A DNA stretch of 64,000 bases, from contig DASYJD010000023.1 in assembly GCA_035996875.1 (NCBI GenBank), forward strand, positions 14,293 through 78,292, in the 5' to 3' direction. Position 1 is the first letter of the stretch, and every line of letters begins with the position of its first letter. Positions 36,785 through 59,150 of this stretch are shown piece after piece. A model generated the notes under the pieces. The model made no database searches. It saw only the letters and a list, made by a program, of their open reading frames with translations, and had not been told where the DNA came from. This stretch comes from Thermoanaerobaculia bacterium (lineage in GTDB: Bacteria; Acidobacteriota; Thermoanaerobaculia; Multivoradales; UBA5704). The position numbers were made by a program, and so were the translations under genes.

Positions 36785-38083
36785 CTACCGCTTCCCCAGC
36801 AGATCCATCAACACGGTCACCTCCGCCTCCATGCCGGTCGCGATCGTCGGGTCGCGGTCGGGGGCGAAGAGGCTGGAGTGGAGGGAGGGGGGATGCTGGC
36901 CGGCCGCCTCGAGCTCCTTGAGCTTCGCGGGATCGCCGGCGCCCAGGCTCCACTGGACCGCCGGGACTCCCGCCAGGCCGTACTCGCTGAAGTCCTCGGA
37001 GGCCATCTGCGGGGGCAGGTCGACGACGTTGCCGTCCCCGAAGGTCCGGCGGAGCGCCGCCGCGATCTGCGCGGTCAGCTTGGGGTCGTCGTAGGTCGCA
37101 GGGCAGCTCTCGACGACCGCGAAGGCCGGCTCCTTGGGCGCTCCCGCCGCCGCCGCTTCGGCCTTGGCGATGCGCTCGATGGCGGCGAGGATGTGCTCCC
37201 GGACCTCCTTCTTATAGGCACGGACGGTGATCTGCAGCTTCACCTCGTCCGGGATGATGTTGTGCTTGTTGCCGCCGTGAATTGAGCCCACTGTGACGAC
37301 CGCCGGGTCCTGGGGGTCCTTCTCACGGGCGACGATCGTCTGCAGCGCCAGGACCGTGCGGGCGGCGATCACGATGGGGTCGACGGTCGTCTGCGGCGAG
37401 GCGCCGTGGCCGCCCTTGCCGTAGATCGTCAGGTCGACCGAGTCGGAGCTCGCTAGGGTGTAGCCCGAGGTGACGCCGAGTTGGCCGGCCGGGAGGTTCG
37501 GCGTGTCGTGGAGCGCCACCACGAAGTCGGGCTTGGGGAAGCGGGTGAAGAGCCCGTCCTTGAGCATCGCCCGGGCGCCCCGGATCCTCTCCTCGGCGGG
37601 CTGGCCGATGAAGACGAGGGTGCCGTGCCAGTCGGCCTTTCGGCGCGCCATCTCGGCCGCGGTCCCCACCAGGGCCGTCATGTGGACGTCGTGCCCGCAG
37701 GCATGCATGACCGGCACCTCGGCGCCCGCGTCGTCCTTGACCCGCACGGTGCTGGCATAGGGGAGGCCGGTCTTCTCCTCGACCGGCAGGGCGTCGAGCT
37801 CGGTGCGCAGCATCACGGTGGGTCCGGAGCCGTTCTTGAGCACCCCCACGACTCCGGTGCCGCCGACTCCGGTCGTCACCTCGAAGCCCGCCTGACGGAG
37901 CCGGGCGGCGACCTTGGCGGCCGTCTTCTCCTCGTGTAGCGAGAGCTCCGGGTGTTGGTGGAGGTCGATGTAGAAGTCCCGGAGATCCGGCGACAGGGCC
38001 TTGGGAGCCGGAGCTGCCGGTCCGGGCACGGCGCCGAGCAGGGAGAGGAGAGCGATCGAGGCCACAACGGGAAAGCGAGGCAT
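36785..38083 (-). CDS. M20 family amidohydrolase (hippurate hydrolase/aminoacylase-like), secreted
   Basis: Start at MPRFPVVASIALLSLLGAVPGPA (signal peptide; Met 53 of track ORF). MHACGHDVH and GQPAEE metal-binding motifs of the M20D amidohydrolases. Confidence 0.85.
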   Translation of the reverse strand: MPRFPVVASIALLSLLGAVPGPAAPAPKALSPDLRDFYIDLHQHPELSLHEEKTAAKVAARLRQAGFEVTTGVGGTGVVGVLKNGSGPTVMLRTELDALPVEEKTGLPYASTVRVKDDAGAEVPVMHACGHDVHMTALVGTAAEMARRKADWHGTLVFIGQPAEERIRGARAMLKDGLFTRFPKPDFVVALHDTPNLPAGQLGVTSGYTLASSDSVDLTIYGKGGHGASPQTTVDPIVIAARTVLALQTIVAREKDPQDPAVVTVGSIHGGNKHNIIPDEVKLQITVRAYKKEVREHILAAIERIAKAEAAAAGAPKEPAFAVVESCPATYDDPKLTAQIAAALRRTFGDGNVVDLPPQMASEDFSEYGLAGVPAVQWSLGAGDPAKLKELEAAGQHPPSLHSSLFAPDRDPTIATGMEAEVTVLMDLLGKR

Positions 38084-38168
38084 AGAGTCTCCGCGGAAGA
38101 AGGAATCCGTCCGGAGAGCATACCCGGAGCGTCCCCGGAGGTCCATCCAGGCCTCCTCCGCGCGCCTC

Positions 38169-38558
38169 CTACGACCGAGGGCGGCCGAAAAATAAAACAT
38201 AACCATCGGCATCCTTGAGCTCAAACCCACGCAAACCATCTTCGGTGTCTTTCAGAGGCTCGGAAAACTCAACATTCCGCGATGCAAATTCTGCCGCCAA
38301 AGTGTCGGGATCAGGAACGTCGAGATAAGCGTCCCAACGAGCAGCAGGCTCTCTCTTGTAGTTTGGCACTGGAGCTACACCAACATCTTTGAGCATGATC
38401 ATCGCACTGCCCCGGCACACGATACCGAAGAAGGGTTCGTCAGCAGGTTCCTGAAATGTAATCTCAAATCCAAGCTTGTCGCGATAGAACGAAAGCGCTG
38501 CTACGGCATCCTGCACGATGAAAAAAGGGGAGATACCGGAAATCTCTGCTTTTGTCAT
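38169..38558 (-). CDS. VOC (glyoxalase/bleomycin resistance) family protein
   Basis: 129 aa. FFIVQDAVAALSFYRDKLGFEI ... GYVLFFG pattern of the glyoxalase fold. Confidence 0.8.
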   Translation of the reverse strand: MTKAEISGISPFFIVQDAVAALSFYRDKLGFEITFQEPADEPFFGIVCRGSAMIMLKDVGVAPVPNYKREPAARWDAYLDVPDPDTLAAEFASRNVEFSEPLKDTEDGLRGFELKDADGYVLFFGRPRS

Positions 38559-38605
38559 ATGAATCCCTATCTCCTATTTCCACGCCCTAACGATAGCCGC
38601 CAGCG

Positions 38606-38760
38606 CTAGCGCTTGCCCACGGCGAGCCAAGGCATGCAGCGGTAGGAATCCGCCACCACTCAAGCGCCGGCCGCCAACGCCCAAGAGTCGACGAGCTCGC
38701 TCCATTGGAAGGCGTTGGGGCCTGCCGCGATGATGGGTACCCACACCAGCAGCGTGAACA
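38606..38760 (-). pseudogene. 3'-terminal fragment of a DoxX-like gene (paralog of 44824..45639)
   Basis: About 155 bp, ~80-85% identical by eye to the last ~50 codons of 44824..45639 (gcttgcccacggcgagcca...ggtacccacaccagcagcgtgaaca), including the TAG stop. No upstream remainder of the gene. Confidence 0.45.
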
Positions 38761-39202
38761 ATTGGCTGCCCCCGCGATAACGCTACCTGACTCCGTATCC
38801 GCTGTCATGGCTTTGAGGCGAGGTCCGGCTTGCCGGTTGCCAGATCGACCTGTCTCATCGTCCGCAGCCCCCGCGAAACAAGCCGCCGCTGATGCGAGGG
38901 CCATAATGATTGCGGCACAACCTTTTGCCTTCATCGCCGGTCGTTCGATCATATCGCTCTCCTTGGGGAAGCTCTAGACTAGAAGGTGGGCCCAGGCTGC
39001 CGCCATGGCCACGGCGGTAAGGAGGATGGCTAGGAAGTGGAGGGTCTTGAGCATACCTCCGCGAGAAGCAACTCCCATGCCGGGGCGTCCGGTTGCCGCG
39101 AGGAAGCCTCGTTCGTGCAGATAGTGCCGCCCGCGAGCCCCCGTTCCGGGTACCACACCTATCGCGGCCCTTCAGGCCGCACCTCTCGAAACCTGCCTGG
39201 CA

Positions 39203-39330
39203 AAAAGGTGTGCCCAGTCCGGCACTCGCGACGCCCTCACAAGGTTGCCGGCAGGCGGGCTGCCCGCAGTCAGCTACCAACAGCCGAGCAAATGGAGGAG
39301 ATTTCCAAAAAGACCCAGGCACCTGTTTTG
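39203..39330. repeat. ~130-bp dispersed repeat ending in a REP-like palindrome CCAAAAAGACCCAGGCACCTGTTTTG
   Basis: Homologous to 48263..48399 and 48503..48643 (...aaaggtgt.cccag.c.ggc.ctcgcga.g.cctcac.aggttg.c.gca.gcgggctgcccgc...cgggcaaatggag...ccaaaaagac.caggcac.tgttttg). Confidence 0.5.
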
Positions 39331-58065: not shown

Positions 58066-58190
58066 GTGGCACTTCCTGTGTGAAGGCAAACAAAGCGGCC
58101 ACCCGGCGGTTGAAAACGCGTCTTCATGGGCGCCGTTACGTGAGCGAGTTCAAGGCCAAGCTGTGATTGCACGAAATCAAAGGGATCTCC

Positions 58191-58225
58191 GAGAGCGGCC
58201 GTTAGAATTCTGAGCGGCCGCTCTC
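58191..58225. repeat. inverted repeat GAGAGCGGCCG-N13-CGGCCGCTCTC between the tail-anchored protein gene and the giant operon
   Basis: 11-bp perfect arms seen in sequence. Lies 3' of 58249..58686 (-) and ~120 nt 5' of giant gene A. Terminator and/or operator candidate. Confidence 0.4.
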
Positions 58226-58248
58226 TGATTCTTTCAGCTTTCCGCAGT

Positions 58249-58686
58249 CTACGGCTTCTTGCGCATCAAGAACCACACCATGACGATGACCGCAAGCAGC
58301 ACCAACCACAGCCACCACCACTTTTCGAGGATGCCGCCACCACCACCGGCAATCGTCCCCACGGCCGCGGGTGGAATCGCGTCGACGAACACTTTGGCCG
58401 CGGCGTCCTGACCAATCACCGCGACATCGAGGGTGCAGGCCTCAAGCAGCGGTTTCACGCCCGCTGCCGTGCAGACTCCCTGCGCCTTCTCGCGGATGCC
58501 CGGCTCAAGAGCCGCCATGAGGCTTTCAGAGGACCGTCCAGCGAAGGGATCGAACGCATGCCTTGGCTCCTGAACCGCGATTTCGTGAAAGGGATTATAC
58601 CGCAAAGGATCGGCCAGGTACACCAAGGCCTGTCTCCACGGCTGAGCAAATAAACATTGTAATTGGGCTATGAGCGGCAAGATCAT
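58249..58686 (-). CDS. hypothetical tail-anchored membrane protein (145 aa)
   Basis: C-terminal part of track ORF 58249..59346 beginning at MILPLIAQLQ (Met 221). Ends with GGGGGILEKWWWLWLVLLAVIVMVWFLMRKKP (TM plus basic tail). AT-rich start region. The upstream part of the track ORF is the frameshifted M20 fragment. Confidence 0.4.
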   Translation of the reverse strand: MILPLIAQLQCLFAQPWRQALVYLADPLRYNPFHEIAVQEPRHAFDPFAGRSSESLMAALEPGIREKAQGVCTAAGVKPLLEACTLDVAVIGQDAAAKVFVDAIPPAAVGTIAGGGGGILEKWWWLWLVLLAVIVMVWFLMRKKP

Positions 58687-58814
58687 CGCGGTGGACCTCT
58701 CGGCGTCTGATGTGGGGCGAAGCGAAGAAGAGCCTGGCACTCCGAAGGCGGGCCACTCCGAAGGCGGGCCGGCCGGGCCAGACATTGAAATCAAGCTATG
58801 AATAGCGGGATCAT

Positions 58815-59150
58815 CACCGTTCTTAAGCACTCCCACGCCCCTGGTGCCACCGATCCCGGTCGTCACCTCGAAGCCCGGCTGGCGGAGCCGGGCGCCGACC
58901 TTGGCGGCCGTCTTCTCCTCGTGTAGCGAGAGCTCCGGGTGTTGGTGGAGGTCGATGTAGGAGTCCCCGGAGATCCGGCGACAGAGCCTTGGGAGCCGGA
59001 GCTGCCGGCCCGGGCACGGCACCGAGCAGGGAGAGGAGAGCGATCGAAGCCACGACGGGGAAGGGAGGCATAAGAAGTCTCCGCGGGAAGAAGGAATCCA
59101 CCCGGGAGCATACCCGGAGATCCATCCAGGCCCCCCTCCGCGCGCCTCCT
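58815..59150 (-). pseudogene. diverged duplicate of the 5' end (promoter-proximal region plus first ~80 codons) of the M20 amidohydrolase gene; frameshifted fragment
   Basis: About 340 bp, ~92% identical to 37830..38170 (ggtcgtcacctcgaagccc...gagctccgggtgttggtggaggtcgatgtag...catacccggag...tccatccaggcc...ctccgcgcgcctcct). Translations MPPFPVVASIALLSLLGAVPGPAAPAPKALSPDLR and YIDLHQHPELSLHEEKTAAKV appear in different frames. Confidence 0.65.

Follow-up and report, generated by a model that had tools for sequence, protein, structure and literature searches.

A truncated second copy of an M20 amidohydrolase gene start at the edge of a composite accessory interval in Thermoanaerobaculia

Why should the start of a single gene occur twice on one contig, intact at one place and dead at another about 21 kb away? 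The question is raised by a stretch of 64,000 nucleotides (nt) from a Thermoanaerobaculia bacterium (contig DASYJD010000023.1 of assembly GCA_035996875.1), referred to below as the window, whose numbering is used unless another locus is named. The gene encodes an M20 amidohydrolase, and the two copies of its 5' end, copy A within the intact gene and copy B as a stub, enclose 20.6 kb of DNA that includes a giant two-gene module. The answer preferred here, at a probability of roughly 0.45, is that homology-anchored recombination joined the arrangement now seen at copy A to a resident M20 gene, that copy B is the displaced remnant of the original gene pair, and that the interval between them is a patchwork built in several steps. 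The coordinates of all features are collected in Table 1.

The repeat search returned three blocks shared by copies A and B, all co-oriented: 37830-37980/58817-58967 (92%), 37978-38084/58966-59072 (93%), and 38086-38129/59076-59119 (75%). In a global alignment of copy A (342 nt) with copy B (337 nt), 303 positions match and 27 do not, and six indels add 19 gap columns; identity is 91.8% when gaps are not counted. Identical runs, the longest of which is 65 nt, are internal and none is found at the repeat ends. A preliminary description of this DNA had reported a co-oriented repeat of ~340 bp and ~92% identity with a broken frame, and both the repeat and its coordinates, to within a few bases, are confirmed. 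It had also held that copy B is not part of an intact second M20 gene, and this agrees with the M20 homology of copy B, which ends past codon 85 and is interrupted at codon 35 by an additional G; the promoter region has also lost 12 nt, and seven amino acids are changed. On the A side, the A/B homology stops precisely at the stop codon of VOC1, a gene of the glyoxalase/bleomycin-resistance type.

The clue to the nature of copy B lies in the DNA beyond it. In three M20 relatives (L163, L164, and L165) the gene order is PGA_cap, a gene of 397-421 aa (-), M20 (+), and we take this arrangement as the older state. The DNA at 59153-59232, just outside the A/B homology, aligns with the first ~23 codons of the 397-421-aa gene in the correct divergent orientation, 59190-59226 aligning with codons 12-23. 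The local alignment scores of the B side against shuffled controls were z = 8.2 (L163), 5.9 (L164), and 4.5 (L165), while the same test applied to the DNA upstream of copy A gave -0.1, 2.3, and -0.2, respectively. The translated stub reads ...RLLL, then a 10-codon insertion, then NLDAEADPARLA, compared with PRLLLGNLDAEEDLARLA in L163. As copy B keeps the ~400-aa neighbour that M20 has in these three loci, it is a stub of the ancestral locus: ~415 bp are left of what was once a pair of divergent genes, and both sides have been cut. The two copies consequently show what is looked for in a homology-anchored insertion: copy A runs into intact M20 and copy B into codons 12-23 of the ancestral neighbour. 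The similarity to the ~400-aa gene ends at ~59232 and is followed by an unrelated open reading frame (ORF) of 128 aa, an array of 42-bp hairpins, and an M1 peptidase gene.

Several smaller observations concern the same end of the interval. The 30-nt in-frame insertion in the stub (59160-59189) starts at the very nucleotide where VOC1 is joined in another locus, L171; the idea that the insertion is a scar of the VOC1 3' end was abandoned because the resemblance was not significant (p ~0.09). A perfect 16-bp tandem (CACTCCGAAGGCGGGC, 2.1 copies) at 58738-58770, inside the interval, adjoins the truncation point of copy B. The TATGCT box that is conserved upstream of M20 is intact in copy B, the divergent promoter region of which (58816-59300) faces an 89-aa ORF and the giant operon in one direction and the 128-aa ORF in the other, and promoter capture at copy B may be possible; scans for sigma-70 promoters and terminators around copies A and B gave nothing usable. 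In the hairpin array (59778-60307) a 42-bp unit is repeated 12.6 times in tandem, every unit having a GGGCACG-N3-CGTGCCC hairpin and a TCCTTACG or TCTTAAAC tail. The array takes up all the space that separates the 128-aa ORF from the M1 peptidase gene, which are convergent. Rfam contains no match to it, and its motif was found in none of the 172 fetched loci outside the window's own contig.

The A side is joined to different DNA, and this junction recurs elsewhere. L171 has the gene order DinB_2, VOC1, M20, and its positions 5982-6808 match window 38577-37775 at 90.5% in an unbroken alignment of ~830 nt. Past the VOC1 stop codon the ~400-aa stub is longer by ~20 nt in L171 (TGCTGTCGAGGAGGAGG, present in copy B too) than in copy A, and copy A has a small deletion at this point. 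The VOC1/M20 junction is thus a derived character common to copy A and L171 that copy B is without. Its presence in L171 means that DNA of the donor type, with the end of the cargo beside the anchor, exists in another genome, and the A-side junction is older than the window genome. VOC1 itself is 80-96% identical at the amino-acid level in metagenome-assembled genomes (MAGs) of Thermoanaerobaculia, Blastocatellia, and Polarisedimenticolia, which suggests a small gene able to spread widely by itself. The GC content at its third codon positions (GC3) is 0.50, compared with 0.82-0.92 for most long genes of the window and 0.92 for M20.

How old the repeat is bears directly on its origin. Over 327-330 aligned columns A and L171 are 92.4% identical, A and B 89.7%, B and L171 89.6%, and A and L163 89.4%. 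A phylogeny of the two M20 5' regions had been proposed as a check in the preliminary description; the neighbour-joining tree recovered a clade of A, B, and L171 (bootstrap 77%), while the order inside it was not settled (A+B 52%, A+L171 20%, B+L171 19%). The shared derived sites are in conflict as well, with three for A+L171, two for A+B, and one for B+L171. Such a three-way split argues against a recent duplication on the spot, and the divergence of A from B goes back about as far as that from a different genome. Six outgroups served to assign the coding substitutions to branches: ~5 synonymous and no non-synonymous changes fell on the A branch, and seven synonymous changes, seven non-synonymous changes, and one frameshift on the B branch, which indicates that A is under selection and B is decaying. 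VOC1 unites A with L171, and only B keeps codons 12-23 of the ~400-aa gene, which argues that B branched first. If so, the copies met via recombination between lineages and not via a recent local duplication, and the 65-nt tract identical in A and B, which contains two shared derived sites, could result from gene conversion between the repeats.

The course of events that we favour is the following. In the original state the ~400-aa gene and M20 would have stood head-to-head with one shared promoter region. Incoming DNA ending in VOC1 and the promoter and 5' region of an M20 gene would then have paired with the resident M20 and been integrated either as a circle, by a single crossover of the Campbell type, or as linear DNA that recombined by homology at one end and illegitimately at the other. 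The resident M20 5' end would have been left stranded beyond the new DNA without the involvement of an integrase. The interval would have grown stepwise, through several events later or earlier than this one, by shuffling of small genes (VOC, DoxX, DinB) that left stubs behind and by addition of a block with a transposase-like gene and of the 9.45-kb giant module. An intact gene with foreign DNA at its promoter, together with a dead co-oriented copy joined to the old neighbour, is the outcome expected of such a crossover. The data show the repeat, the ancestral context of B, the A-side junction common to L171, the mosaic composition of the interval, the separate spread of the giant module, and the lack of an integrase or tRNA; the mechanism, the identity of the resident copy, and the order of the events are what we infer from them.

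A number of points weigh against this scenario. The branching of B before the split of A and L171 is not settled by the sequences, and the weak signal uniting A and B could reflect duplication in situ as well as gene conversion. The similarity ranking of copy A to its relatives does not change at codon 85 and no crossover is visible inside the repeat, so that nothing shows import of the 5' end alone. In L171 the M20 gene runs past codon 85, and the contig ends at ~codon 102 and gives no view of any B-like stub. The outer flank of copy B is not intact native DNA, as the ~400-aa gene is itself cut at ~codon 23, and at least one further event is therefore needed. The junctions around copy B rest on one metagenome assembly. 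Finally, a site that has the flanks of the window and is empty, which the preliminary description proposed to look for, was not found among the fetched relatives, and no relative of more than 97% identity with such a site was found. The insertion is thereby deduced rather than demonstrated.

The surroundings of M20 in other genomes bear on the preferred reading and on its main rival alike. A protein homologue search yielded M20 relatives of 84-97% amino-acid identity, the named matches being Thermoanaerobaculia MAGs, and the neighbourhoods of six of them (L162, L163, L164, L165, L166, and L167) were compared with the window. DNA similarity in all six is limited to M20 with ~50-90 bp upstream and up to ~20 bp downstream, at 87-94.5% identity to copy A and 76-85% to copy B. 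The flanks differ from those of the window in 6/6 and mostly also from each other, and orthologues of 84-94% nucleotide identity are found in different surroundings in almost every contig (the six and L171), which marks the M20 neighbourhood as a recurrent breakpoint region. None of the six has DNA of the interval beside M20. This absence and the deviant composition of the interval are as in a genomic island, with the reservations that the nearest M20 relative is only 94.5% identical and that the interval is itself of mixed composition. Relatives that share the whole segment in synteny, which according to the preliminary description would have spoken against an insertion, were likewise not seen; they share sub-parts only. 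One candidate for the complementary half of a split gene (P0025, 97% identical and starting with GVLKNG where copy B ends) was rejected, since its shape is an N-gap artefact of scaffold L167, where M20 is intact. Pattern scans with the M20 protein over genome and metagenome contigs gave, among the matches listed, relatives of at most 64% identity, none of them syntenic; the conserved motif VMHACGHD is probably why such matches were so numerous. Toxin-antitoxin and NACHT/TIR genes are frequent near M20 in L162-L167 and L171.

According to this rival a whole second M20 gene, i.e., copy A with VOC1, was acquired or relocated as a unit, whereupon the resident pair became redundant and eroded, and the two copies do not bound any single insertion. 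M20 with its short upstream region is the sole segment conserved among relatives while both flanks vary, the similarity ranking of copy A stays the same across codon 85, and VOC1 lies next to an M20 gene that extends past codon 85 in L171; all of this would be expected if the gene moved whole. The downstream flank of M20, outside the interval, is also foreign-looking, as it holds an AHSA1 gene (GC3 0.67) and differs from every relative examined. On the other hand more independent breakpoints are needed, at both ends of A and at both ends of B, and the co-orientation of the copies and their 21-kb spacing are left unexplained. We therefore consider import of the entire gene unlikely, yet it is the alternative to be taken most seriously.

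It is less easy to believe that the M20 5' region was duplicated in situ, segmentally or in tandem, that one copy decayed and the gap was filled later, and that M20 was never transferred horizontally. The slight preference for A and B as sisters agrees with it, as do their 65-nt identical tract with its two derived sites and a Gly17 unique to them, and the 15 changes on the B branch are close to what is expected of a pseudogene from the synonymous changes of A. Gene conversion between the repeats can nevertheless account for the shared tract, and since A shares the VOC1 junction with L171 whereas B keeps codons 12-23, B could not have been copied from a locus of the A type. Duplication in place is for this reason judged a rather poor prospect.

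Whether the interval could have arrived as one element depends on what it contains. It is a mosaic built in several steps and not one element, since the giant module has sharp limits of its own, the stubs differ widely in their identity to relatives, and the GC3 of interval genes ranges from 0.50 to 0.85 compared with 0.82-0.92 for long genes elsewhere in the window. Five gene stubs are present when copy B is included (M20, DoxX, DinB 5', DinB 3', and RAYT), and the four besides B are 81% to 96% identical to outside relatives. The DoxX 3' fragment, the fragment of the RAYT gene, and the two low-GC genes (39370-39762, GC 0.50; 44074-44649, GC 0.56) had all been pointed out in the preliminary description and were recovered here. 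The order is VOC1 then DoxX in locus L172 and DoxX stub then VOC1 in the window, from which it follows that the small genes have been rearranged repeatedly. No domain of an integrase or recombinase (tyrosine, serine, or DDE), an excisionase, a phage, or a conjugation system was found in the interval ORFs, which were scanned in overlapping subsets against Pfam, NCBIfam, PADLOC, and PHROGs; the one transposase-like gene among them is RAYT. Neither tRNA genes nor Rfam families were detected in the window, and a short core resembling an att site was not found.

Table 1. Position and content of the features at the M20 locus, in window coordinates.
Feature	Position	Strand	Content or basis
M20 amidohydrolase gene, intact	36785..38083	-	432 aa, GC3 0.92; Pfam Peptidase_M20 (4e-31) and M20_dimer
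Repeat copy A	37829..38170	-	M20 codons 1-85, promoter region, and ~8 degenerate codons of the divergent ~400-aa gene; ends at VOC1 stop codon
VOC1	38169..38558	-	Glyoxalase/bleomycin-resistance-type gene, 129 aa, GC3 0.50; adjacency to M20 common to L171; Pfam Glyoxalase
DoxX 3' stub	38603..38760	-	Last ~51 codons and stop, directly upstream of VOC1; 84% to 44818-44978 of the window's own DoxX, 90% to L172 DoxX
REP motif copy 1 (CCAAAAAGACNCAGGCAC)	39305..39322	+	Motif search
VOC2	39370..39762	-	Second glyoxalase-type gene, GC3 0.54, 23% identical to VOC1; Pfam, alignment
Peptidase_M90 (MtfA-like) gene	39898..40692	-	264 aa; Pfam match on JGI gene call in L081
443-aa gene	40828..42159	-	No family match in profile scans; gene call in L081
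198-aa gene	42267..42863	-	No assigned function, GC3 0.66; ORF, gene call in L081
REP motif copies 2 and 3	42930..42977	+	Motif search
DinB_2 5' stub	42990..43273	-	~75 codons and 61 nt upstream; 96% to L171 5418-5701; Pfam DinB_2 profile positions 3-41 only
DsbA-like thioredoxin-fold gene	43401..44084	-	Pfam
191-aa gene	44074..44649	-	No assigned function, GC 0.56; ORF
DinB 3' stub	44753..44818	-	Last ~22 codons, 6 nt after DoxX stop; 81% to L171 5914-5982
DoxX-like gene, full length	44824..45639	-	271 aa; Pfam DoxX, weak; 79% nt to L172 DoxX
Internal RAYT stub	45700..45793	+	96% to 47480-47573 of RAYT gene
RAYT gene	47276..48196	+	REP-associated Y1 transposase-like, 306 aa; NCBIfam REP_Tyr_transpos, Pfam Y1_Tnp
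Tandem duplication	48210..48640	+	Period 242-243 bp, with REP copies 4-6; abuts end of giant module; repeat and motif search
Giant module	48655..58110	-	9.45 kb, sharp ends; G1784 52711-58065 (1784 aa from the ATG common to homologues) and G1322 48711-52679 (1322 aa)
89-aa ORF	58249..58518	-	C-terminal transmembrane segment, upstream of giant genes; part covered by L168 is shared with L168; ORF call, alignment
Repeat copy B	58816..59152	-	Decayed M20 start (codons 1-85, frame lost at codon 35) and its promoter region
Stub of divergent ~400-aa gene	59133..59232	+	~Codons 1-23, start codon lost, 30-nt in-frame insertion, overlapping copy B at its outer end; tblastn, DNA alignment, and shuffle test against L163, L164, L165
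128-aa ORF	59294..59680	+	No assigned function, just past the stub, read in direction of the lost ~400-aa gene; ORF call, profile scans

The giant operon noted in the preliminary description is indeed present, as the two genes G1784 and G1322, and it has spread independently of the rest of the interval. The module is 96.6% identical at the nucleotide level to L168, 91.8% to L169 (an Edaphobacter contig), and 89% to L170, with unrelated flanks in each. L169 and L170 cease to be homologous at 58110 and ~48655, and L168 at 48646; the shared DNA begins ~45 nt before the first ATG and extends ~40-65 nt past the second stop codon. The GC content is 0.60-0.62 in the two genes, 0.59 over the entire Edaphobacter locus, and 0.64-0.70 across most of the window. 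The module is a horizontally exchanged unit that moves between acidobacterial classes, and at 89-97% DNA identity the exchange was evidently recent. The ~150 homologues of G1784 are mostly near full length (~1750-1830 aa) and come from Acidobacteriota, Candidatus Brocadia, and Chitinophagaceae (Bacteroidota). Neither G1784 nor G1322 has a match in Pfam (E<=1), NCBIfam, PADLOC, PHROGs, or the PDB sequences, and no signal peptide was evident in either when judged by eye. The N-terminal fold of the giant protein is predicted with confidence by modelling and has no known structural relative. One may guess, at low confidence, that the two proteins form a large envelope-associated or pore-forming complex. 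A conserved family of ~1780-aa and ~1320-aa proteins without a detectable domain is the most unusual part of the locus and the one most worth further work.

Next to the giant module lies a block with a RAYT (REP-associated Y1 transposase-like) gene and copies of a repetitive extragenic palindromic (REP) motif. The REP family described earlier stands, as CCAAAAAGACNCAGGCAC is found in six copies, all on the + strand, compared with 0.1 expected by chance; the RAYT assignment stands weakly, with both profile matches below their curated cut-offs (REP_Tyr_transpos, E=9e-12, 45 bits vs. 80; Y1_Tnp, E=1.2e-3, 19.4 bits vs. 23). All six REP copies fall within 39.3-48.6 kb, three of them within 450 bp downstream of RAYT, and one sits at the end of the giant module; the motif was in no fetched locus besides the window's own contig. 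The tandem duplication in this block is real, with a period of 242-243 bp and not the 235 bp first given. A unit of ~110 nt within it (48225-48333 and 48467-48576) is also found, at 85% identity, in the intergenic gap L171 613-723, and could represent a short non-coding element, either mobile or structured. A Y1-type gene with copies of one palindromic motif nearby is what is seen in known REP/RAYT systems, where the transposase-like gene is single-copy; unlike in these, the six REPs are clustered in 9.3 kb of the 64-kb window and not dispersed, and the RAYT match is below the cut-offs. RAYT is a housekeeping-type REP transposase and is not known to move islands, and nothing ties it to the M20 repeat junctions.

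It is tempting to speculate that the 21 kb as a whole are an island that needs no integrase and is mobilised in cycles by RecA acting on the 340-bp M20 repeats, leaving as a circle, being taken up by relatives, and re-integrating at M20, and further that the giant proteins are a new envelope or pore-forming machine and that the promoter of copy B might drive the giant operon and the 128-aa gene. This chain of suppositions is improbable. Still harder to reconcile with the contents of the interval is a single site-specific integrative element, i.e., a prophage, an integrative conjugative element, or an integrative mobilizable element, that occupies 38.2-58.8 kb, targets the M20 5' end, and carries a replacement 5' end in its attachment site. 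Such an element would account for co-oriented repeats flanking accessory DNA, with an intact gene on one side and a dead stub with its ancestral flank on the other. Against it stand the lack of an integrase, excisionase, conjugation, or phage gene in the interval ORFs scanned, a 340-bp repeat that is diffusely diverged without a short identical core at its ends, and the composite interval, of which other genomes share sub-parts only (VOC1-M20 in L171, VOC1-DoxX in L172, and the giant module in L168-L170). It is accordingly very unlikely, and of the integrating-element model in the preliminary description the displaced original 5' end is supported, by the ~400-aa neighbour kept in B, while the single element is not. 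That copy B is merely the M20 allele of a co-occurring strain, misjoined in the JGI metagenome contig to which the window belongs (Ga0372940_0000067) because the 65-nt A/B run misled the assembler, is scarcely credible, as B is a true pseudogene in unique sequence on both sides that differs from A on either side of the run, as a chimeric join would switch context inside the run and not yield a doubly truncated stub, and as its decay by frameshift, deletion, and replacements speaks against a chimera.

Outside the interval, the region at 13000-20000 has the highest GC content (0.71-0.73) and the largest tetranucleotide deviation of the window, and holds a 1246-aa ORF (14866-18603, -).

With homology-anchored displacement as the preferred reading, the locus consists of a gene stub pushed to the border of an accessory patchwork that arose in several steps, and apart from the giant module it is ordinary genome flux. 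It would mean that accessory DNA can build up in an uncultured acidobacterial lineage without an integrase, anchored on the conserved start of a gene, and that the gene stubs left behind record the order of events. It also bears on how often single genes or small modules (M20, VOC1, and the giant pair) are passed from one class of soil bacteria to another. For the annotation of MAGs it is relevant that stubs such as copy B may be mistaken for genes or for attachment sites. A search of the literature on islands in Thermoanaerobaculia turned up nothing relevant.

In bacterial pangenomes flexible genomic islands and integration hotspots lie between conserved genes. The locus is like these in having a conserved gene, M20, with varying accessory flanks of mixed composition that contain pseudogene fragments and small repeats. 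It is unlike them in that both flanks of M20 vary, that M20 itself looks like an island of conservation, and that no conserved pair of core genes bounding the variable region can be defined. Phage 21 and e14 insert in the 3' end of icd in E. coli and supply a near-identical substitute for the gene end, which keeps the target gene intact. Elements of this type use a tyrosine integrase and a short core, and the original gene end persists beyond the element, where it forms a diverged direct repeat. This is a looser parallel, as the repeat in the window is at the 5' end, no integrase was found, and the interval is composite. The closest described parallels are the displacement models for Rhs and contact-dependent inhibition (CDI) toxin loci and for the effector-immunity arrays of the Vibrio type VI secretion system, in which orphan stubs arise by displacement that has been attributed to homology-facilitated illegitimate recombination (PMC5361080). 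There, too, an anchor is shared, the resident part is pushed aside as a truncated relic, and no integrase takes part. In those loci it is the 5' end of the toxin gene that is constant, and the relics, which repeated rounds arrange into strings, are 3' ends with their immunity genes; in the window a 5' end was displaced together with its promoter, the anchor is an M20 amidohydrolase of housekeeping type, and the cargo is, as far as visible, unrelated to toxins.

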